From Bacteroidota bacterium (GTDB taxonomy: Bacteria > Bacteroidota > Bacteroidia > 2-12-FULL-35-15): 64,000 bases of DNA. Shown here one piece after another: positions 39,400 to 52,800 of the stretch (within the stretch, counting starts at the first letter, position 1; each line of letters begins with the position of its first letter). The notes below the pieces were generated by a model, which worked only from the letters and a program-made list of their open reading frames with translations, did not search any database and was not told where the DNA came from. Both the position numbers and the translations under genes were made by a program. The stretch spans positions 25,568 to 89,567 of the forward strand of contig JAHEXZ010000015.1 of the NCBI GenBank assembly GCA_023251835.1. Reading direction: 5' to 3'.

Positions 39400-40404
39400 C
39401 TATTCCAGGCATAAACATATTTTTTCTACTGCTGCTGCATCTCCCACACTAATCCGCAATGACTTATCCTGACCAAAAACTTTCAGGTTACAAACTATCA
39501 ATCCGTTAGTTGTAAATTTACTAAATAGTTCTTCTTTTTTATTTTCCGAATCAAAAAATACATACAAAAAATTTCCCTGTGGTGAAATTACATTTAACCC
39601 TGCCTGTTTTAATTTCTCATATAAAATATTTCGGTATTTAGTATTTTTCTTTATACATGATGAAATAAATCTTTTGTCTTTCAGTGATGCAAGTGCTGCA
39701 TCTTCTGAAAGCGAATTGAAGAAAAACGGAATACGGTTTTGTTTTAAGACGTTTGCCATATCTCCTCTCATTATTCCATAACCGATTCTTAAGCCGGCTA
39801 ATCCATATATTTTGGAAAATGTGCGAAGGATAATCAGGTTGGGATATTTTTTCTGAAGAGAAAATGAATCAGGAAAGGATTTATCAGTTACGTATTCACA
39901 ATAGGCTTCATCAATAACAACAATTATTTTCTCAGATATATTTTTCAATAATTGTTCAAGCTGTGAATGGGTAATGATTGTTCCTGTGGGATTATTGGGA
40001 TTGGCAATGAAAATAACTTTGGTTTTTTTAGTGATGAGTTGGAAAATATTTTCTACATCACAAATAAAATCTGTTTGTTTGGCAAAACTATATTTTCTCC
40101 GGTGAGCAGCAGCGAGTTGTTCGTAAGCAACAAAACTCCGCTCAAAAAGTATAATTTCTTCATCAGGCTCAACAAATGTCTGGATAATTCCATCAATTAA
40201 CCTCACTGAGCCTGCACCTACAACAATATCTGTTGCATCAACGTTAAATTTTTCTGCAAGCTTTTCTTCCAGGCGGACAGGCAGTGAAGGATACAGATGT
40301 ACATTTATTAAGCCTTTTTTAATTGTTTTCTGAACTTCTGGAGAACAGCCATGGCTATTTTCATTTGCGTTCAGACGTATTATTGGTTGTTTTTTATTCT
40401 TCAT
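39400..40404 (-). CDS. Class II PLP aminotransferase (HisC/aromatic aminotransferase-like)
   Basis: Contains LNANENSHG, ANPNNPTG, DEAYCEY and TFSKIYGLAGLRIGY (PLP Lys). I prefer the ATG at 40404 (MKNKKQPIIRLNANEN). The longer track ORF overlaps the upstream gene. Confidence 0.8.
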   Translation of the reverse strand: MKNKKQPIIRLNANENSHGCSPEVQKTIKKGLINVHLYPSLPVRLEEKLAEKFNVDATDIVVGAGSVRLIDGIIQTFVEPDEEIILFERSFVAYEQLAAAHRRKYSFAKQTDFICDVENIFQLITKKTKVIFIANPNNPTGTIITHSQLEQLLKNISEKIIVVIDEAYCEYVTDKSFPDSFSLQKKYPNLIILRTFSKIYGLAGLRIGYGIMRGDMANVLKQNRIPFFFNSLSEDAALASLKDKRFISSCIKKNTKYRNILYEKLKQAGLNVISPQGNFLYVFFDSENKKEELFSKFTTNGLIVCNLKVFGQDKSLRISVGDAAAVEKICLCLE

Positions 40405-41284
40405 TTGATAAAATATCTTCAAAAATTCCTTTGCTGATGTTATATAAAACTTCTTTCCTATACCAGGCAGTAGCACGTATATCTGAAATGGGAGAGGCAT
40501 AACCCACTACTTTCTCTGCAAACTCTTTCTTTTCATTTTCAGAAATTTCAAAAATGTTTTTTCCTGCGAGAAATTTGCAGGCGGAATCGGTGGAACGAAT
40601 AGTAGGTGCTGATGAGCCAATTGCTATTCCTGCATGAATAATTTTTCCTTTAATATCAGTTTGAATATGGTATGCCAGCGACACAACAGAACACTCCATT
40701 GATTTACGTGTGCCTATTTTAATGAATCTGGAAAAAATTCTTTTTTTATTTTTTTCATTTCCGCGAATAGAGATGCTGTAAAGCAATTCGCCTCGTTTAA
40801 GAGCTGTAGCTCTTACTCCTGTGTGGAAATCATGAATCGGAATTCTTCTTCTCCTTCCATTTTCATTAATAATCTCACAGTTCGCACCCAATGTCATTAA
40901 CGCACAGGCAATATCTCCGGAAGGTGAAGCTGTACAAAGATTTCCTCCCACAGTAGCTACCTGCCTTATCTGGGTTGATGCAAGATTTAGTGCTGCCTCA
41001 TGTAAAACAGGAAAATTTCTTTTTATTTCTTCGTTCATAACAATATTGTGTGCAGTAACTCTTGAGCCTATTGTTAAACCCTTGGATGTTTTCTTTATCC
41101 CTGTAAATACAGCATCTTTTACCTGTGTAATATTTATCACAGTCAAATTTTCCTCTGGCTTTTTTCTTAGCTCTAATAATAGGTCGGTGCAGCCGGCTCC
41201 AAAACGAAATTTTTTTCTTTTCAAATTTTTTACGACCGAAAGAAGTTCTTTAGTCGTTGTCGGGTTTATGATTTCAAAACTCAT
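40394..41284 (-). CDS. FAD-binding (CoxM/XdhB-type) subunit of the second XDH-family enzyme
   Basis: Contains FGAGCTDL and ATVGGNLCTASPSGD. It has no Cys-rich insertion. Confidence 0.85.
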   Translation of the reverse strand: MSFEIINPTTTKELLSVVKNLKRKKFRFGAGCTDLLLELRKKPEENLTVINITQVKDAVFTGIKKTSKGLTIGSRVTAHNIVMNEEIKRNFPVLHEAALNLASTQIRQVATVGGNLCTASPSGDIACALMTLGANCEIINENGRRRRIPIHDFHTGVRATALKRGELLYSISIRGNEKNKKRIFSRFIKIGTRKSMECSVVSLAYHIQTDIKGKIIHAGIAIGSSAPTIRSTDSACKFLAGKNIFEISENEKKEFAEKVVGYASPISDIRATAWYRKEVLYNISKGIFEDILSNEE

Positions 41285-41294
41285 TTTATTTCAA

Positions 41295-43604
41295 TTAAAT
41301 ATTTTTATGAATTGCTTTCAATACTTTTTCAGGAGTAATTGGCAGCTCAATAATGTCAATATCAAGTGCATTACACACTGCATTTGCAATTGCAGCGGCA
41401 GTGGGAATCAATGGTGCTTCACCAACACCTTTAGCTCCGTAAGGGCCTTGCTTGTCGTTTGTTTCTATCGGAAAAAAATCTATTTCCGGAATATCCGAAG
41501 CAGTAAGCATTTTGTAGTTATGAAAATTCGGATTCAGAATTTTTCCATCTTTCATCAGTAGCTCTTCTGAAAGCGCATAACCCATTCCCTGCAAAATTCC
41601 TCCGTGAATTTGACCATCGAGTAAAAGCGGATTCAGCACTTTTCCCACATCCTGTGCCACCCACACATTTTTTACACTCACATTGCCAGTATAAGTGTCT
41701 ACTTCCACTTCTATTGCCTGCGAAGCAAAAGCATAGGTTCCCGAAACATTCCCTTTGTATTCCTTATTCTGGACCTGGCTGGATGGCTCATAAAAATAAG
41801 AAGCTATTGCCAGTTCGTTCGGATGGGAGAAATGCATTTCACGAACTACTTTGTCGAGGGCAATGCTGTTACCGGATATGCTGGATTTGATGAATCCATT
41901 TTCGTATTCAAATTCTTCATCACTGGTTTTGAGAAGTTCGTTTGCTTTTTTATTTAATTTCTCTTTCAGAATTTTTATTGCACCAAGCAATGAATTTCCG
42001 GCCACAAAGCTGGTACGTGAGGCATGCACTCCCACATCCCAGGGCTTTATATCGGTGTCGGTATTAATAACTTTAATTTTTTTCAAATCAATTCCAAGTT
42101 CTTCCGAAGCAATCATAGCAAGCACAGTTTCTGAACCCTGGCCAATTTCATTGGAACCGGTAATAATCGTACAATATCCGTACGGGTCAATTTTTAGTGT
42201 GGTTCCACAACCGTCAGAACGGTATATTTTTGCACCACCACCTACATGCAACATTGAAGCATAACCGATTCCGCTTACAAACCTCTTTTGAGTGCTTTTT
42301 TTTGATGAGTGTTTGCTCACTTCACTTTTTTGAGTTTTTAATTTTGATTTAGTTATTACTGTTTCCAAACACTCTTTGTGTCCGCAGGTTTCGTAGTGTA
42401 AACCTTGTCCGGTAGTTTCTCCTTTTTCATTTGCGTTCAGCAGACGGATTTCAGCTTTGTCCATACCAATTTCTTCGGCAAGTAAATCAATCATACGCTC
42501 CAAAGCAAAAGTAGCCTGTGGATTTCCGTATCCTCTGAATGAACCCGCAAAAACATTGTTGGTATAAACGGCCGTTGCGTCAAACATGCAGGCACCAACT
42601 TTATATAGCGATGAAAATGCCTGCATAATTACAAACGGAGTAGTTGCACCCCATGAAGTATAAGCTCCATTGTCTTTCACAATATTTATTTCCCGGAAAG
42701 TAAAATTTCCTTTTTTGTCAACTCCCGCAGTTAAATCAATTATCATTGGTTGGCGTGTGGGGGATGCAATAAATTCTTCCTCGCGTGAATAAATTATCTG
42801 AACCGGTCTGCCGGTTTTCATTGAGAGCAACGCACAAATTGGTTCAAATGGATACATATCTAATTTGCTTCCAAACCCCCCTCCAATCACAGGTTGAATG
42901 ATTCTGATGTCGGAAGGATTCATTTTGAGCGCGTGTGCCATGTCGCGCTGATACAAAAACGGAACCTGTGTTGAACTGTAGAGTAAAAGTTTACCATCTG
43001 TTTTATTATAGGATGCGGTGATATTGCTTGTACCCATACAAGCATGTGTCATTCGCGGAAGCGTGAATCTTCTTTTTACAATAGCTGCACTTTTCTTTTT
43101 TTCTTCTTCAAGATTACCGTGTTCATAATGAAATGTTTCCGCAATGTTTTTATTTTGAAATTTTCCTGAAATAAATTTATTAATCTGCGGAGCATCTTCT
43201 TTCAATGCTTCAAACGGCCCATATATTCCTTTTCGGATTTTATATTTTACCTTGATTAGCTTTAGCGCCTGCTGTGCTATTTCTTTTGTTTCGGCTGCTA
43301 TAGCGGCAATTTCATCACGTATACAGTTCACCTCACCTTTTTTCAAAATGGGATGATCGCGCTTATAGCTGATATTATTGGTATCTATATCATCTGCGGT
43401 GATTATGCAAACAACCCCTGGGATTTTTTTGGCTGCGGAAATATCAATAGTAAATTCTGCCGAAGGATGTTCTGTTCGAAGAATTGCACCGTACAACATA
43501 CCCGGCAAAACAATATCGTGACCGTACACGGCCTTTCCTGTAACACGGATGTGTGCATCGTGTTTTGGAGTGGGTTTGCCAATTATTTTCAATTCTTTAA
43601 ACAT
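41295..43604 (-). CDS. Molybdopterin-binding large subunit of the second XDH-family enzyme
   Basis: 769 aa. Contains VIGGGFGSK and GAKGVGEAPLIPTAAAIANAV. Confidence 0.88.
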   Translation of the reverse strand: MFKELKIIGKPTPKHDAHIRVTGKAVYGHDIVLPGMLYGAILRTEHPSAEFTIDISAAKKIPGVVCIITADDIDTNNISYKRDHPILKKGEVNCIRDEIAAIAAETKEIAQQALKLIKVKYKIRKGIYGPFEALKEDAPQINKFISGKFQNKNIAETFHYEHGNLEEEKKKSAAIVKRRFTLPRMTHACMGTSNITASYNKTDGKLLLYSSTQVPFLYQRDMAHALKMNPSDIRIIQPVIGGGFGSKLDMYPFEPICALLSMKTGRPVQIIYSREEEFIASPTRQPMIIDLTAGVDKKGNFTFREINIVKDNGAYTSWGATTPFVIMQAFSSLYKVGACMFDATAVYTNNVFAGSFRGYGNPQATFALERMIDLLAEEIGMDKAEIRLLNANEKGETTGQGLHYETCGHKECLETVITKSKLKTQKSEVSKHSSKKSTQKRFVSGIGYASMLHVGGGAKIYRSDGCGTTLKIDPYGYCTIITGSNEIGQGSETVLAMIASEELGIDLKKIKVINTDTDIKPWDVGVHASRTSFVAGNSLLGAIKILKEKLNKKANELLKTSDEEFEYENGFIKSSISGNSIALDKVVREMHFSHPNELAIASYFYEPSSQVQNKEYKGNVSGTYAFASQAIEVEVDTYTGNVSVKNVWVAQDVGKVLNPLLLDGQIHGGILQGMGYALSEELLMKDGKILNPNFHNYKMLTASDIPEIDFFPIETNDKQGPYGAKGVGEAPLIPTAAAIANAVCNALDIDIIELPITPEKVLKAIHKNI

Positions 43605-43616
43605 AAATTACAGTTA

Positions 43617-44306
43617 TTAATTTAACATCATATAATATTTCGCCTTTCCAAACTCCTTTCGTTCTCTATCATAAAGAGTAATATCAATTGCGCTATACTT
43701 ATCTTTGGGTTGTTTAAACTCTGTTTGAATAAAATATCCTGTCATACTTTGTTTTCCCGCGTATTCATTTACCTTTTGTATTGAATAAATTTTTAATCGT
43801 TGACCATCTATAGAAACATTTATCTCAACACTATCAATATTTGGAGCTATAGAACGAGTAGTCTCATTTTGTTTCCTGTTATCAAGAAATCTTGTTATAC
43901 TCATGGGCCTCATATAGATTGTATATGCAGGAAAAGCTCCTTGAATCTTAAACACATTAACACCATATATTTCTATCTTTTCAATTTGTATATCTATTGT
44001 CAAGTCTTTATGAGCTGGCACATTCCATGTCCAAAATTCAAGATTACTTTTTGCATAATCACTTTTCTTAACAGCACATAAGGCAAAATAATTATTCTTT
44101 TTTGTCTTAAAAGAGTACAATCCACCCTTAGCAGACATTGCTGAATCAACCGTAATAAAATTGGAATCTTTTAACTCAATGGAAACACTATCCATAGGTA
44201 AATTTTCAAAATCAGTGATTTTACCTGAAATCGTTACATAATCCTGATTTTTACATGGTGAAATCAATAAGACGACTCCTGGAATTATAAAGAGTAAGGG
44301 TCTCAT
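43617..44306 (-). CDS. Lipoprotein with CarboxypepD_reg-like beta-sandwich N-domain
   Basis: Has the lipobox LLISPC. ISGKITDFENLPMDSVSIEL...GGLYSF follows. Confidence 0.5.
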   Translation of the reverse strand: MRPLLFIIPGVVLLISPCKNQDYVTISGKITDFENLPMDSVSIELKDSNFITVDSAMSAKGGLYSFKTKKNNYFALCAVKKSDYAKSNLEFWTWNVPAHKDLTIDIQIEKIEIYGVNVFKIQGAFPAYTIYMRPMSITRFLDNRKQNETTRSIAPNIDSVEINVSIDGQRLKIYSIQKVNEYAGKQSMTGYFIQTEFKQPKDKYSAIDITLYDRERKEFGKAKYYMMLN

Positions 44307-44317
44307 AATTTTTTGTA

Positions 44318-44512
44318 TTAGCAGTTATTAATTTTTTGGTTTATACAAATATCTCTATTATTGTATCTGCAAAAACGTGATGTACAGGGCTTCTGTTCCA
44401 CGGTTTCATCGGAAGTAAATTTTTCAGCATGAAGTTTTTGAAACGAAAAAAATACTGTTCCGACAATTGCTGCTGAACATATTTTCAGAAATTCTCTTCG
44501 TGTTCTGTCCAT
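44318..44512 (-). CDS. 64-aa Tat-signal mini-protein with C-terminal 4-Cys segment
   Basis: MDRTRREFLKICSAAIVG gives a perfect T-R-R-x-F-L-K Tat motif. Its ATG directly abuts the stop of the upstream FAD oxidoreductase gene. Confidence 0.6.
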   Translation of the reverse strand: MDRTRREFLKICSAAIVGTVFFSFQKLHAEKFTSDETVEQKPCTSRFCRYNNRDICINQKINNC

Positions 44513-45940
44513 CTATCTTGACTTTGAAAAATATTTTTTTGTTTCATTAGCGGCATTTATTCCTGTAACAATTGCTCCTTCCATACAAGGCATCTCTATC
44601 TCACTACGTATCCAGTCGCCAGCGAGAAAAAGGTTTCTGAAATGTGTTCTCGTTCTTGGTCTGAATTTTACTGTGCCTGGTTCGGTGAGCAGGTAACGTT
44701 CGTGATTTGCTTTGTTCCTGTTGAAGGATTCATGGATGATTCCAGCTTTTCTCGGGTCTTTTGCACCTGGAACTTTGAGAAACGCATTGAAAATTATTTC
44801 TTTTAGTTCATCATCCGTTTTATTTTCGAAAGATGTTTCCTGTCCTACCCATTCAAGAGCAGAACCAATTCCTGGATTATTTTTATACTCGTCCTTAATA
44901 GTTTTATAATCCGCAACACTTCCCATTGGTTCATCAAGTCCATTAATAGTGACAGTTCCGGTTGGCATCACGGATTCTTTTGTCCATACCTGGTAAGAAA
45001 GTGAAACTACGGTTCGCAGATTTTCTATGCTCTTAAACCCATTCCAGAAAAAAGAATCACCCCAGTTCAGTTCCCTAAAGCAATCAGGAGGAATTGCCAG
45101 GATAAGTGCATCTATATTATTTATCTCCTGAATAGAATCCTGTATAACAGGTACAACATCTTTCCACGGTATTGTTCCATATCCATGAATTTTAGCATCC
45201 GGATCACCGATTTTTATACCTGTTATCTTTTGTCCGTCATGGATAAGTTCTGTAAGTTTTTTTTTAATAAAAATTTTTCCTCCAAGTTTTTCAAAATAAT
45301 CTGTAAGCGGTTTAATAATGTTTTCACCATATGTTCCGTTTATGTAAAAATATTTACCCGTTCCAACCGCTTTTCTCACACCCATCAGGGTTAAATAGGT
45401 AGATATTTCATATGGCCAATTGAATGCGGCATCCTGTGAAAAACGAAACCATCTCATCTTTGTTATTTCTTTGTCCATGCCATGTTCAAGTGCCCAGGCA
45501 GTATAACATATATCATCATATTTTTCAATATCCATATCAAGATAAATTGTTTTCGCATTCTTTATCCCGAAATTAGTTATTTTCCTATAGGTGTTAAATG
45601 GGTAAGGTGGATTGGGAATTCGTAAATCAGGAGCAATGGAATGAACTTTTCCCGTGCTTTCTTCATAACATAAATTTATTCTTTTATTTGAAACCAGAGT
45701 CTTTTTTTCTTTCACTCCAGCTCGTTTCAACATTCTTCTCATATTGGTATACGGAGCAAACAGGCCATGCAAGCCATGGTCAATATTAAAACCTTCCGCA
45801 TCGCGCCATGAAGTCGCGCGACCACCCAGGTGATGCCCCATATTGTATAGCCTTACATCAGCATCTTTCATCTCTTCCAGAATTTTGATTCCGGCAGCAA
45901 TTCCGGCAAGCCCTCCTCCTATGATAACCACTTTTTTCAT
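44513..45940 (-). CDS. FAD-dependent oxidoreductase (amine oxidase / phytoene desaturase superfamily), no own signal peptide
   Basis: Contains KKVVIIGGGLAGIAAG and GGRATSWRD..GFNIDHGLH. The C-terminus has LAGDW. Confidence 0.7.
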   Translation of the reverse strand: MKKVVIIGGGLAGIAAGIKILEEMKDADVRLYNMGHHLGGRATSWRDAEGFNIDHGLHGLFAPYTNMRRMLKRAGVKEKKTLVSNKRINLCYEESTGKVHSIAPDLRIPNPPYPFNTYRKITNFGIKNAKTIYLDMDIEKYDDICYTAWALEHGMDKEITKMRWFRFSQDAAFNWPYEISTYLTLMGVRKAVGTGKYFYINGTYGENIIKPLTDYFEKLGGKIFIKKKLTELIHDGQKITGIKIGDPDAKIHGYGTIPWKDVVPVIQDSIQEINNIDALILAIPPDCFRELNWGDSFFWNGFKSIENLRTVVSLSYQVWTKESVMPTGTVTINGLDEPMGSVADYKTIKDEYKNNPGIGSALEWVGQETSFENKTDDELKEIIFNAFLKVPGAKDPRKAGIIHESFNRNKANHERYLLTEPGTVKFRPRTRTHFRNLFLAGDWIRSEIEMPCMEGAIVTGINAANETKKYFSKSR

Positions 45941-47079
45941 TCGGATTTCAATTTGAATTTATCGAAATAAAAACCTACCAATTCCTGATAACCCTTTCCA
46001 TTTGTACTGTTTTTCCCGGAAGATTTTTCATTTACTACCACTTTGCATGGACCTTCCCAGAAATAATTGTAAAAGAGAATAGGCATCTCGTGGTCGTCCC
46101 ATTGGGGAGAAATATGAAGCTCGTATCCCCATTCCGGAATATCCAGCGTCCATTCGACCGGATATTTAATATTTGTTCTCGGACTTTCCCATATTCGGTG
46201 AGATGATGCGTTAATGGTTTTATACACACTGGTTTTTCCATTCTTGTCAAGTTGTGTTACCGACTGAACAAGAATTTTTCCAGTTAAAATATTTTTAACA
46301 ATATACAGATTCAGCGCGTCACCATTGTCAAGTGTAATTCCCCACCAACACCAGCGTAGGTTTTTGTTGGGCCAGGGCTTTCCCCATTGATGGTCATACC
46401 ATACCACGCCTTTCAAATCATGAAAAGAATCATCCGCTTTGAGTTTTCCGATTGAACCTAATTGCGGGTAAGAATAATAGTAAACATCCTGCGAACGCTT
46501 TATTCCGATGAGTCCGGTACCATCAAGAAGCAGAGGTTTTGAAGAATCGGGAAGCGACATAAGAAGTGAAAGCACAAGTGAATCATTATTGATTACAAAT
46601 GAATAACTTCCTTTTTGTTTTTTCAAAATGCTGTTGTCGTAATTCAAATCAAGCGGTGCTCCCGGTTTTTCATTTGGGCCTTTTGGATACGTAAAAATAT
46701 TTTTCTTTCCTGCTATCGGAAGCGATAGAGGCGACAGTGATTTATCAAAAATATAATTGTAATAATTTTTTCCGGTATTCAGGTTGGTAATCTTGTATGT
46801 GAGGTATCTTTCTCCAAGACCACGGATAAAACTGGCATAAAACGACCAGGCGTATTTTGAAGAATCGGTTTCGTAAAGATACCCGTAGTAATACCACCAT
46901 TCCATAGATTTATAGGTATGAATTTCCTCTTCATCAACGGGAGAAAGAATTCGTTTTCCCTCACTGTTGTAAACTGGTTCTTTTTTATTCAGGAAGTAAG
47001 GATAACATGAAGTCAATAAAATCATAAGCAGGCTTATAGCCAGCAAAAATTGTAAATATATTTTTGAAAATGATTTCAT
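45937..47079 (-). CDS. AttH/CrtC-like (hydratase-fold, lipocalin-like) lipoprotein
   Basis: Has the lipobox LLTSC. MEWWYYYGYL and VVWYDHQWG are motifs typical of the CrtC/AttH family. It overlaps the downstream gene by 4 nt. Confidence 0.6.
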   Translation of the reverse strand: MKSFSKIYLQFLLAISLLMILLTSCYPYFLNKKEPVYNSEGKRILSPVDEEEIHTYKSMEWWYYYGYLYETDSSKYAWSFYASFIRGLGERYLTYKITNLNTGKNYYNYIFDKSLSPLSLPIAGKKNIFTYPKGPNEKPGAPLDLNYDNSILKKQKGSYSFVINNDSLVLSLLMSLPDSSKPLLLDGTGLIGIKRSQDVYYYSYPQLGSIGKLKADDSFHDLKGVVWYDHQWGKPWPNKNLRWCWWGITLDNGDALNLYIVKNILTGKILVQSVTQLDKNGKTSVYKTINASSHRIWESPRTNIKYPVEWTLDIPEWGYELHISPQWDDHEMPILFYNYFWEGPCKVVVNEKSSGKNSTNGKGYQELVGFYFDKFKLKSE

Positions 47080-47088
47080 GAAATTATC

Positions 47089-47619
47089 TTACTCTCTCGA
47101 AATTTTTTCAACTGCGTCAATAATTTTTACGTAACCCGTGCATCTGCACAAATTTCCTTCCAGCCATTTTTTAATTTCATCTCTTGTGGGGATTTCGGAT
47201 TTCGCCTTTCCGGTAGTCTTATGAGAATTCTCGTACCGATTCATCAATCCCTTAATCGACATTGCCATTCCTGATGTACAGAATCCACATTGTACCGCCC
47301 CATTTTGAACAAGTGCATGCTGCACTTCATCTAATGAACCATCGCTTTTTGTCAATCCTTCAATGGTTGTGATTTCTTTTCCGTTTGCATTCACGGCTAA
47401 AAATAAACAGGAGTTTATTGGAGCGCCATTCATAAGCACTGTACAGGCACCACATTCACCTTCATTGCAGCCCGGTTTTGTTCCTTTGAGTTCAAAAACA
47501 TCGCGAATCACATCCAGCAATACGGCTGAAGGTTTTACTTCACAGGAAACTTTTTTTCCGTTGAGCACGAATGAGATTTTATGCAGCGACCCATTTTCCT
47601 TTTTTATTTTCTGTACCAT
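47089..47619 (-). CDS. [2Fe-2S] small subunit (CoxS/XdhC-iron-sulfur type) of an XDH-family enzyme
   Basis: Contains CNEGECGACTV, QCGFCTSGM and NLCRCTGY. Confidence 0.88.
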   Translation of the reverse strand: MVQKIKKENGSLHKISFVLNGKKVSCEVKPSAVLLDVIRDVFELKGTKPGCNEGECGACTVLMNGAPINSCLFLAVNANGKEITTIEGLTKSDGSLDEVQHALVQNGAVQCGFCTSGMAMSIKGLMNRYENSHKTTGKAKSEIPTRDEIKKWLEGNLCRCTGYVKIIDAVEKISRE

Positions 47620-47637
47620 CGTAAATTATACTTTTTA

Positions 47638-48225
47638 TCATTTTGAATAATATTCCCTGCCCATCCTGAATGCTGACATAGTTTTTTCCCTGTGATAATC
47701 CATCACTGTATTCTGAATTGCTTTTTCAATTGTTTCCGCAGTGAACGGAAAATTCATCATCTTTGTGGCTCTTCCAAGAAGGAGAACGTTGTATAAAACG
47801 GAATCAACATTCTCAGGAATAGTTTTAACAAATACAACCTCTTTGCATTGTTCTTTCAGGTAATCTGCAAAAGAATTTACGTCAGGGTATTTAGCAGTTT
47901 CGGAATTTACCGAATAAGGTGCAATTTGATAGTTACAGAAAATTATACTGCTATTTTTATGCAGGTATGGGATACAACGTTGTGTTTCGAGTGGTTCCAG
48001 CCCAATAAGAAAATCAACATTGGCTTTTCCGATAAATCCAGTATTGTATTTCCCTAACCCAATGCCGGCAGTTACAATTCCTCCGCGCTGTGAAAGTCCA
48101 TGAATTTCGCTCACACTAACAGGAATATCTGAAATAACTGCCGCCTCTGCCAGAATGTTTGTTAGATATACTATTCCCTGCCCACCTACACCAGCCACAA
48201 GAATCTTATTTATTTTGTTTTTCAT
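47638..48225 (-). CDS. iorB: Indolepyruvate:ferredoxin oxidoreductase beta subunit
   Basis: 195 aa. Contains ILVAGVGGQGIV and GLSQRGG. Confidence 0.8.
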   Translation of the reverse strand: MKNKINKILVAGVGGQGIVYLTNILAEAAVISDIPVSVSEIHGLSQRGGIVTAGIGLGKYNTGFIGKANVDFLIGLEPLETQRCIPYLHKNSSIIFCNYQIAPYSVNSETAKYPDVNSFADYLKEQCKEVVFVKTIPENVDSVLYNVLLLGRATKMMNFPFTAETIEKAIQNTVMDYHREKTMSAFRMGREYYSK

Positions 48226-48296
48226 GTAAACTTTTTAAGCCAGGTTAATGCATTGCGTTCATTACTAAAAATCATTGAAGGATAATATTTTTTTTC

Positions 48297-51828: not shown

Positions 51829-52800
51829 TCAGTATAAATTAGTAAAATTTGGTACTTTGTTACCCAAAAAAACAGTTTCCTGTTGTATAATTTTCAATAT
51901 TGTTGACAGAATTTTATCCCCACCAGAATTTCCATCCACCCAGTGAATTTTAAATCCGTTTTTTTCCATCCTACGAAACCATGTCATTTGTCTCTTGGCG
52001 AATTGATGAATGGCTGTATTTAATAAGGAAAACATTTCATTGTATTTTAATTCTCCCTGTAGAAACATAGTCAGAAATTTATATTCTAAACCGTAATTTT
52101 TGAGTTGATTTGATGAAATACCTTTACCAAGTAATTCTTTCACTTCATCAATCATTCCTTGTTCAAATCTTCTCTTTAATCGCTGCGTAATCTTTTGCCT
52201 GAGAAGATTTCTTTCCATATGAATACCGATAACTCTACTGTTTATCTTAGGAAAATCATTTTTTAAATTGGGGTTGTTGATATTATAATGTTCAATCTCA
52301 ATTGCCCTGAGAACTCTGTTGATATCATTTGAATCAGTTGCATTATGTAGTTTGCGCATTCCTGATAGTATTATTACAAGTTCTTCCAGACTTTTCCCTT
52401 GCAGATGCTCCCTTAATTGAGAATTTACAGGAACATCAACTAACTTGTATCCTTTTAAAACTGCTTCAAGATACAGTCCTGTCCCTCCACACAGAATCGG
52501 TACATTACCACTTAAAGTGATTTTCTGATAAGCCGACAAAAATTCATTTTGATATTGATAAACACTAAATTCTGTTCCTGGGTCAGCGATGTCAATCAAG
52601 TGAACAGGAATTTTTTTGTTGTGAACTATATAATCATCAAAATCTTTTCCGGTACCAATATTCATTTCTCTGTAAACCTGGCGGGAATCTGCGCTAATGA
52701 TTTCACCATTTATCCGGTATGCCAGACCGGTCGCAATTTTTGTTTTCCCGGAAGCCGTGGGGCCAAGAATGGTTATCATATTGGTAGTTGGTGAAATCAT
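51829..52800 (-). CDS. miaA: tRNA dimethylallyltransferase
   Basis: Contains ILGPTASGKT, ISADSRQVYREMNIGTGK, HLIDI and CGGTGLYLEA. Confidence 0.85.
   Translation of the reverse strand: MISPTTNMITILGPTASGKTKIATGLAYRINGEIISADSRQVYREMNIGTGKDFDDYIVHNKKIPVHLIDIADPGTEFSVYQYQNEFLSAYQKITLSGNVPILCGGTGLYLEAVLKGYKLVDVPVNSQLREHLQGKSLEELVIILSGMRKLHNATDSNDINRVLRAIEIEHYNINNPNLKNDFPKINSRVIGIHMERNLLRQKITQRLKRRFEQGMIDEVKELLGKGISSNQLKNYGLEYKFLTMFLQGELKYNEMFSLLNTAIHQFAKRQMTWFRRMEKNGFKIHWVDGNSGGDKILSTILKIIQQETVFLGNKVPNFTNLY

Follow-up and report, generated by a model that had tools for sequence, protein, structure and literature searches.

The 64,000-nucleotide (nt) stretch of DNA analyzed here (the window), from a Bacteroidota bacterium, contains an operon for an enzyme of the xanthine dehydrogenase (XDH) family. 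In this operon, the gene for the 2Fe-2S subunit is parted from the genes for the molybdopterin (Mo) and flavin adenine dinucleotide (FAD)-binding subunits by a block of four genes (43617–47079). A preliminary description of the locus, made from the letters alone, had noted this split, and all seven open reading frames (ORFs) involved were recovered. Three genes of the block, encoding an AttH/CrtC-family lipoprotein, a flavoprotein, and a 64-residue peptide with a twin-arginine translocation (Tat) signal, are called the trio below. The genes of the array, with coordinates in the window, are as follows.

51829–52800, minus strand: miaA
48297–51746, minus strand: IorA-GltD-like fusion (indolepyruvate oxidoreductase; Pfam, NCBIfam)
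47638–48225, minus strand: IorB (Pfam, NCBIfam)
47089–47619, minus strand: 2Fe-2S subunit of the XDH-family enzyme (Pfam Fer2_2 and Fer2)
45937–47079, minus strand: AttH/CrtC-family lipoprotein, 380 residues, trio gene 1 (Pfam PF07143 and PF17186)
44513–45940, minus strand: FAD-dependent oxidoreductase resembling phytoene desaturase (PDS), 475 residues, trio gene 2 (Pfam PF01593)
44318–44512, minus strand: Tat-signal Cys-motif peptide, 64 residues, trio gene 3 (sequence, homologous peptides)
43617–44306, minus strand: secreted or lipid-anchored protein, 229 residues, passenger (signal-like N terminus)
41295–43604, minus strand: Mo subunit of the XDH-family enzyme (Pfam MoCoBD_1, MoCoBD_2, Ald_Xan_dh_C)
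40394–41284, minus strand: FAD-binding subunit of the XDH-family enzyme (Pfam FAD_binding_5, CO_deh_flav_C)
39400–40500, minus strand: HisC-like aminotransferase, last gene of the operon (TIGR01141, 297.6 bits, above cut-off)

The tight packing reported earlier for the block is exact, with spacings of 9, −4, 0, 11, and 12 nt. The stop codon of the AttH gene overlaps the start of the flavoprotein gene by 4 nt, and the ATG of the peptide directly follows the TAG of the flavoprotein. No terminator-like site was found in the intergenic spacers (−4 to 12 nt), and a sigma-70 promoter and terminator scan of these spacers, made with a promoter model ill-suited to Bacteroidota, gave nothing above shuffled expectation. 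Judged by spacing alone, the block is probably co-expressed with the operon. One Logan contig from a groundwater metagenome spans 43528–48162 and includes both block junctions, so the block is not an assembly chimera. In addition, two metagenome runs gave contigs in which position 48235, just upstream of IorB, is linked by 33 letters of other sequence to position 40530, within the FAD subunit gene; these may come from a related strain or organism with another gene order. In the HisC-like gene (39400–40500), the longest ORF runs 107 nt into the FAD subunit gene, and translation more likely begins at the Met at 40404 (MKNKKQP...).

The first gene of the trio encodes a 380-residue protein whose assignment to the AttH/CrtC family was borne out by both sequence and fold. 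It matches PF07143 (CrtC_N; 47 bits versus a cut-off of 22.5) and PF17186 (Lipocalin_9; 82 bits versus a cut-off of 26.2), and its sequence matches that of PDB entry 2ICH (NE1406, E 1.5e-16). An AlphaFold2 (AF2) model of the protein (predicted local distance difference test, pLDDT, 86) matches the double β-barrel fold of 2ICH and of kievitone hydratase, which adds water to a prenyl double bond; the template modeling (TM) scores from Foldseek were 0.83 for 2ICH (E 4.5e-24) and 0.78 for kievitone hydratase (7A0Q, E 4.6e-19). The lipobox (L-T-S-C) named in the preliminary description is present as well, and its Cys is kept in most relatives.

Residues H54, E60, W61, H230, W232, W310, and E366 of this protein are invariant across 18 relatives. 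In RgCrtC, the essential residues are His239, Trp241, Tyr266, and Asp268, which belong to the motifs RHxWxP...AYFDxNWG, and Asp268 is the catalytic residue proposed to protonate the double bond. When compared by eye with the published alignment, the protein from the window reads YYYSYP...VWYDHQWG, so that the Asp is kept and Tyr266, His239, and Trp241 are replaced by Trp, Tyr, and Ser, respectively. These replacements identify it as a member of the AttH branch and not as a CrtC. From its family and modeled fold, the protein is predicted to be a hydratase of a C=C bond. Elsewhere in the same genome (G000:C137:5738–6439, our locus L002), a second, distant AttH-like region (25% identity) lies within a 542-residue ORF.

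The flavoprotein encoded by the second gene matches PF01593 over residues 11–466 (E 3.6e-24). It had been placed in the CrtD/CrtI superfamily, and it is indeed desaturase-like, but CrtD and CrtI are more distant from it than plant-type PDS and HpnE are. Its scores against NCBIfam models were 91 bits for HpnE (cut-off 283), 85 for ZDS (cut-off 622), 81 for PDS (cut-off 569), and 14.5 for CrtD (cut-off 500), the last being a match of the N terminus only (E 0.009). Rice PDS (5MOG) was the sole full-length PDB match by sequence (E 3.6e-13) and was also the best Foldseek match (TM 0.80, E 6.5e-27) of an AF2 model with a pLDDT above 90 along most of the chain. The next fold neighbors, which are L-amino-acid oxidase (LAAO), NicA2, and monoamine oxidase (MAO), had E-values of ∼1e-20, about a million-fold weaker. 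Among 5.8 billion proteins, full-length relatives of the flavoprotein form ∼70 clusters at 29–77% identity.

The third gene encodes a mini-protein (MDRTRREFLK...CTSRFCRY) in which TRREFLK and the hydrophobic stretch that follows form a consensus Tat signal. The Tat assignment made previously is upheld by this twin-arginine start and by the presence of TatC in the genome of the window (233 bits), where a cytochrome c maturation gene was also found. A word-based homolog search with the peptide gave no candidates; an exhaustive profile search of 1.84 billion proteins gave 43 representatives, nearly all of them 58–97 residues long. The motif C-x4-C-[RK]-[YH], which is C-x4-C-R-Y in the peptide from the window, is invariant in this family, as are R5, C43, and C48, and the twin arginine is present in 17 of 18 relatives, with Arg-Lys in the other. 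Further Cys residues are located just upstream of the motif (C-x2-C-x2-C-x4-C) or 7–13 residues downstream of it, and in some lineages the peptide itself carries a lipobox. Comparison of the peptides with Pfam and NCBIfam identified no family and one weak TAT_signal match. In one contig (L042:4580–6019; P0137, 419 residues), the reading frame of the peptide continues into a HEAT-repeat/cytochrome c protein, which L043 and L045 encode as a distinct downstream gene; the fusion may be genuine or may stem from a sequencing error in one contig.

The preliminary description treated all four products of the block as exported. Signals are present on the AttH protein and on the 64-residue peptide, but the flavoprotein carries none, and its export is inferred: its Rossmann motif begins at residue 8, and in all family members except one the motif lies within ∼12 residues of the start. 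The exception (L073:7869–9455, ∼32% identity) carries an N-terminal Tat signal of its own that includes a lipobox (RREFIAYLSAAGLLAGC / MSRREFIAYLSAAGLLAGC), and neither a separate peptide nor an AttH gene adjoins it. The signal on this family member, the lipobox on some of the peptides, the fusion to and proximity of cytochrome c, and the presence of TatC together make a periplasmic flavoprotein that is carried by the peptide and coupled to c-type cytochromes the best reading.

The fourth product, of 229 residues, had been called a second lipoprotein. It has a signal-like N terminus and a weak CarboxypepD_reg-like N-terminal domain, but its presumed lipobox (ISPC) is atypical, with a Pro at position −1. 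A search of 5.8 billion proteins gave only two homologs, of which one is a neighbor of a pectinesterase. The GC content of the gene (0.306) is the lowest in the operon. Because it has only two homologs and is missing from all other copies of the trio, we rejected this gene as part of the module and conclude that it is a lineage-specific, unrelated passenger. The four-gene cassette originally proposed does not recur elsewhere; the conserved unit consists of the AttH protein, the flavoprotein, and the peptide.

These three genes, the peptide being 60–90 residues long, occur together in contigs from Bacteroidota, Planctomycetota, Victivallales, and Myxococcota. In a set of 25 non-redundant loci whose flanks were long enough to judge, an AttH gene adjoins the flavoprotein gene in 20, and a Cys-motif Tat peptide that satisfies the strict pattern is present in 17. 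The AttH and flavoprotein genes frequently overlap at their stop and start codons, and the peptide ORF follows the flavoprotein gene, or the pair where the AttH gene lies downstream. Cytochrome c genes are directly beside the trio in six loci outside Bacteroidia (L027, L038, L039, L043, L045, and L048). Also outside Bacteroidia, the trio occurs without XDH genes, and a Planctomycete genome that carries it has no Mo subunit ortholog. In some Bacteroidota, the flavoprotein has no adjoining AttH gene: at L036:10001–11646, the flavoprotein and peptide lie next to a class III aminotransferase, and at G030:C52:77985–79421, the flavoprotein stands without AttH, the AttH homolog of that genome being on another contig and containing an in-frame TAA.

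The operon that hosts the trio in the window appears to serve anaerobic indole metabolism. Its 2Fe-2S subunit aligns to Escherichia coli PaoA from profile position 45 onward, without the Tat leader of PaoA, and the Mo and FAD subunits carry no export signals; the XDH-family enzyme is therefore cytoplasmic. The top NCBIfam model for the Mo subunit was 4-hydroxybenzoyl-CoA reductase alpha (546 bits, under the cut-off), a match compatible with, but no proof of, a CoA thioester as substrate. Genes located upstream encode hydantoinase A/B, a RidA-like protein, an acyl-CoA dehydrogenase, a thiolase, an enoyl-CoA hydratase fusion, a split B12 mutase, and a family III CoA-transferase. Judged by this gene content, the host is an iaa-like cluster for oxygen-independent degradation of tryptophan or indoleacetate, in which IorAB and the aminotransferase can provide indoleacetyl-CoA from tryptophan. 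Hydantoinase A/B and an XDH-family enzyme, both found in the cluster, are what we take to be members of the iaa pathway. The iaa operon of Aromatoleum aromaticum (PMC8360864) shares with the host cluster a family III CoA-transferase, a split B12 mutase, an acyl-CoA dehydrogenase, and β-oxidation genes; it differs in having a CoA ligase in place of IorAB and the aminotransferase, and no module of AttH, flavoprotein, and Tat peptide is described for it.

Six relatives that carry a Mo subunit ortholog (71–86% identity; genomes G031, G008, G019, G006, G024, and G030 in our sample) have the 2Fe-2S and Mo genes adjacent, ∼20–30 nt apart, with no block between them. The gene order in these six is IorA, IorB, 2Fe-2S, Mo, a CysK-like and/or a class V aminotransferase gene, FAD subunit, and HisC. 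From this comparison, we conclude that the four-gene block is an insertion between the normally adjacent 2Fe-2S and Mo genes. No AttH gene was found in 24 sampled genomes of the same genus. In all, the trio is present inside the operon in five cases (the window, L024, L032, L033, and L034) and absent from these six orthologous operons. The split of the XDH subunit genes would then be incidental to an insertion into short spacers between genes, one that should leave the enzyme unaffected.

The preliminary description had held that absence of the cassette from orthologous operons, together with a foreign composition, would speak for an unrelated insertion with no functional link. About half of the orthologous operons do lack the trio, but the composition is native: the GC content is 0.374 for the AttH gene, 0.379 for the flavoprotein gene, and 0.374 for the window, and the GC content at third codon positions is also inside the range of the operon. 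A foreign composition of the block was therefore rejected, only the 229-residue gene being lower. Inspection by eye of the junctions in the window, L024, L032, and L034 revealed no repeats, insertion sequence elements, or integrases; no formal repeat search was made.

Within the indole operon, the trio occupies two different slots. Slot A (the window, L032, and L033) lies between the 2Fe-2S and Mo genes; at slot B (L024 and L034/L035), the Mo gene and a CysK-like gene come first and the FAD subunit gene follows. The flavoproteins encoded in these slots are close relatives (73–77% identity), and their tree groups them by slot, whereas the Mo subunit tree pairs the window with a slot B operon and mixes carriers with non-carriers of the trio. 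This mismatch between the two trees indicates recombination or repeated capture. In another genome (L025), the trio is located elsewhere, between unrelated genes, yet the genome has the operon; the same is true of one more distant Bacteroidota genome.

We analyzed co-occurrence, a check suggested in the preliminary description, in 401 genomes drawn evenly from the class. A Mo ortholog (68–89% identity) was present in 21 of them and the flavoprotein in four, all four within the 21 and spread over three families; in three of the four, the flavoprotein is unlinked to the operon. The association has a Fisher p of 5.6e-6, or 1.1e-4 when the genome of the window itself is left out. The trio recurs across phyla and, in this sample of the class, its flavoprotein occurs only in genomes that bear the operon; outside Bacteroidia the trio is not specific to XDH genes. 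The two slots and the genome co-occurrence support some form of functional connection of the trio with the operon, and together they make a pure passenger less likely than an accessory role. That role may be substrate pre-processing, detoxification, or an electron outlet.

Several of these operons contain other genes besides the trio. In G019 and G006 (L019:295–3314 and L021:6387–9428), ∼4 kb of unrelated genes lie between IorA and IorB, encoding an AAA-type ATPase, a small partner protein, and a 332-residue protein on the opposite strand, an arrangement with the look of a defense island; this defense-like insert marks the operon as a recurrent landing site for foreign genes. Two trio-bearing loci (L033:2584–6516 and L034:2–3912) have a molybdoenzyme of the dimethyl sulfoxide reductase family and a Fer4_11 protein between IorA and IorB, a further accessory that varies among these operons. 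The gap between the Mo and FAD subunit genes in relatives (L017:14605–15477, L018:13941–15416, L032:13976–16335, and L024:8942–9814) holds a CysK-like PALP enzyme of 290 residues, a class V aminotransferase of 491 residues, or both, and these may act in maturation (sulfuration) of the molybdenum cofactor; the window carries neither of them at this position. The operon as a whole is patchy, being present in 21 of 401 genomes from 13 genera, and Mo orthologs from other families (G031, G195, and G294) are 83–86% identical to that of the window, compared with 71–84% within the genus. This patchiness and cross-family similarity suggest horizontal spread of the whole iaa-like operon.

Taken together, we propose with modest confidence, a little above even, that the trio is a Tat-hitchhiking periplasmic redox module, probably a desaturase/hydratase, that was recruited as an accessory to the indole pathway. 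The AttH lipoprotein would be exported by its own signal. The flavoprotein would fold with FAD in the cytoplasm, bind the Cys-motif peptide in what we infer to be a flavoprotein-peptide complex, and cross the membrane by the Tat system as a hitchhiker on the peptide, which may also tether the flavoprotein or wire it electrically. At the outward-facing surface of the cytoplasmic membrane, a C–C/C=C bond of a hydrophobic substrate would be acted on first by the flavoprotein and then by the hydratase, such that desaturation plus addition of water would amount to an oxygen-independent hydroxylation. Electrons would pass to c-type cytochromes like those encoded beside the trio in other phyla. One clade of Bacteroidia would have recruited the trio into the indole operon, at two slots, as an accessory.

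The proposed module has parallels in several known systems. PaoABC of E. coli (PMC4273604), like the host enzyme, is a three-subunit member of the XDH family, and it is an example of the Tat hitchhiking proposed here for the trio. The Tat signal of PaoABC is on its 2Fe-2S subunit, whereas in the window the Tat signal belongs to the inserted module and the XDH-family enzyme is cytoplasmic. A closer match in export is the γ-α-β FAD-glucose dehydrogenase of Burkholderia cepacia (PMC6719666), in which a signal-less flavoprotein is exported by a small Tat-signal subunit and a cytochrome c subunit takes the electrons; it differs from the trio in having a catalytic subunit of the GMC family and a larger hitchhiker without the C-x4-C-R-Y motif.

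With regard to the chemistry, the preliminary description likened the AttH/flavoprotein pair to CrtC and CrtD, the carotenoid 1,2-hydratase and 1-hydroxycarotenoid 3,4-desaturase of purple bacteria. The adjacency of hydratase and desaturase genes does have precedents, and CrtC/CrtD is likewise a PF07143 hydratase beside an FAD enzyme of the amine-oxidase/desaturase superfamily, but the flavoprotein of the trio is PDS/HpnE-like and two of the four CrtC residues are lost. The Asp of the CrtC motif YFD-x-NWG is kept as WYDHQWG, whereas RHxWxP corresponds to YYYSYP; the genome of the window has no phytoene synthase, and CrtC and CrtD have no Tat peptide and are not exported, as is proposed for the trio's products. 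In the archaeal Ted/Hgs system (bioRxiv 10.1101/2025.10.20.683597), a B12-radical-SAM tetraether desaturase and an AttH-like hydroxy-GDGT (glycerol dialkyl glycerol tetraether) synthase hydroxylate an isoprenoid lipid without oxygen. Like the trio, Ted/Hgs has overlapping genes for a desaturase and an AttH-like hydratase and is a case of desaturation followed by hydration; it differs in that the desaturase is a radical-SAM enzyme and not a flavoprotein, in its function in archaeal membrane lipid synthesis, and in having no Tat peptide and no cytochrome c (bioRxiv 10.1101/2025.10.20.683597). By analogy, the logic of Ted/Hgs with a flavin desaturase would fit the trio. Literature searches on AttH with periplasm, lipoprotein, or isoprenoid, and on the structure of kievitone hydratase, gave no account of such a module. 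The trio is thus made of known parts (the AttH fold, a PDS-like flavoprotein, Tat hitchhiking, and a cytochrome c partner) in an arrangement that we did not find described.

A number of results weigh against the proposed module or its recruitment. Its chemistry is drawn from family and fold resemblance only, and the flavoprotein scores far under every NCBIfam equivalog cut-off. In the AttH protein, His239 and Trp241, which are essential in CrtC, are not conserved, and the most distant AttH partners have Lys in place of the Asp. SQS_PSY (PF00494, phytoene/squalene synthase) has no match in the 96.6% complete genome, so a carotenoid or hopanoid precursor made by the cell itself is not the substrate. 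No cytochrome c gene lies beside the trio in the Bacteroidia clade. When a TAG/ATG read-through fusion of the flavoprotein and peptide was modeled with AF2, the flavoprotein was well modeled and the peptide had a pLDDT below 50. The input to this model consisted of flavoprotein homologs and two natural in-frame fusions; separate peptides that were aligned under the fusion by MAFFT scattered over flavoprotein columns, and that alignment was discarded. The peptide is unstructured in the model because it has no alignment depth, and the model hence gives no docking information. The co-occurrence rests on four genomes, and its statistics ignore phylogeny and shared habitat. The operon hosts unrelated inserts in relatives, in the gap between IorA and IorB and in that between the Mo and FAD subunit genes, so the mere presence of the trio there is weak evidence. 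Finally, the sole metatranscriptome from the same sample contains no contig on 39400–52800.

The most serious alternative, which we hold to be possible but the lesser prospect, is that the trio is a mobile, self-sufficient periplasmic unit that entered a permissive, highly expressed operon as a passenger and borrows its promoter, with no metabolic tie to the pathway. The operons without the trio, the clearly unrelated inserts in the same operon of relatives, and the 229-residue gene in the block of the window would all be expected from this explanation. So would the trio of L025, a close Bacteroidia relative, with its unrelated neighbors, and the copies in other phyla without XDH genes, including the Planctomycete genome that has no Mo ortholog. 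Less easily explained in this way are the filling of two slots of one operon in related lineages, each slot with its own clade, and the fact that the three genomes of the class with an unlinked flavoprotein all carry the operon, versus 5% of genomes overall. The junctions, inspected by eye, also have neither mobility genes nor flanking repeats, and the composition is native. In another explanation, the flavoprotein would be a periplasmic amine or amino-acid dehydrogenase of the NicA2, MAO, or LAAO type that acts on an indolic amine or carbinolamine (tryptophan, tryptamine, or an indole-derived compound), with the AttH barrel as a partner that binds hydrophobic ligands or hydrates, and the product imported for the iaa-like pathway. 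NicA2 of Pseudomonas putida S16 is a periplasmic flavoenzyme that uses a c-type cytochrome, CycN, and not oxygen. It belongs to the fold superfamily of the flavoprotein, and NicA2 structures are among the Foldseek neighbors (E ∼1e-20, with LAAO and MAO); PF01593 is the amine-oxidase family, cytochrome c genes lie beside the trio elsewhere, and the association with the indole-degradation operon holds at the level of genomes. NicA2, however, has its own Tat signal, an amine substrate, and no hydratase partner. PDS is clearly the best match to the flavoprotein by sequence (E 3.6e-13) and fold (6.5e-27 versus 1e-20), the top NCBIfam models are HpnE, ZDS, and PDS, the fold of the AttH partner has characterized members that hydrate isoprenoid C=C bonds, and the trio also occurs in genomes without the indole operon. 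We therefore consider an amine dehydrogenase unlikely.

Two other explanations concern the location and the substrate of the flavoprotein. Desaturases of the PDS type are normally membrane-peripheral and use quinone, and the flavoprotein could likewise remain at the cytoplasmic face of the membrane, with the Tat peptide an independent exported redox or metal peptide, the AttH protein alone in the periplasm, and a shared substrate, such as a membrane lipid, that is accessible on either side. This would agree with the missing signal on the flavoprotein, the lack of a docking signal in the AF2 fusion model, and the usual location of such desaturases. We nonetheless judge it rather improbable: L073 has its own Tat-lipoprotein signal, the peptide follows the flavoprotein gene even without AttH (L036), the peptide is fused to cytochrome c in one locus and neighbors it in others, and a mature peptide of ∼35 residues has little need of Tat unless it travels with a folded partner. 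Lastly, the pair could carry out classical carotenoid or hopanoid tailoring of the CrtC/CrtD or HpnE type on C30/C40 isoprenoids of the cell, as the resemblance to crtC-crtD and the HpnE, ZDS, and PDS models would imply. This explanation is largely refuted, and we give it almost no credence, since the 96.6% complete genome has no SQS_PSY gene, the equivalog cut-offs are missed widely, export signals are present, the two CrtC residues are not conserved, and the module lies within a catabolic operon.

The reading we prefer, a periplasmic module exported by Tat hitchhiking, can be extended further. The trio might be a type of extracytoplasmic, oxygen-independent oxidizing system not recognized before, in which the PDS-like flavoprotein and the AttH-fold hydratase use water to place hydroxyl or oxo groups at C–H or C=C bonds. 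In it, new Cys-motif Tat mini-subunits would export the flavoprotein, perhaps wire it to cytochrome c, and may bind a metal or Fe-S center, and in Bacteroidia the system would be dedicated to the indole/tryptophan pathway. We regard this broader proposal as doubtful. A speculative example of it would be periplasmic hydration/dehydrogenation of C2=C3 of indole, or of a lipophilic indolic compound, before import.

Whichever role the trio has, the locus carries the general lesson that foreign genes that split the subunit genes of one enzyme need not matter for that enzyme. The Cys-motif peptides are a compact, conserved, and unannotated family that gene callers often miss, and recognizing them would correct the predicted location of the whole flavoprotein family. 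If the periplasmic desaturase/hydratase is real, the bacterial cell envelope would join the places where hydrophobic compounds are hydroxylated without oxygen; so far, carotenoid enzymes of the cytoplasm or membrane and, as a very recent addition, a lipid system of archaea have been the known cases. The trio would then also supply candidate enzymes for the anaerobic hydration of isoprenoid alkenes, which has long been observed in sediments but not assigned to enzymes. In Bacteroidia, the link to the operon points to an unrecognized extracytoplasmic step or electron outlet in anaerobic degradation of tryptophan and auxin in groundwater and sediment.

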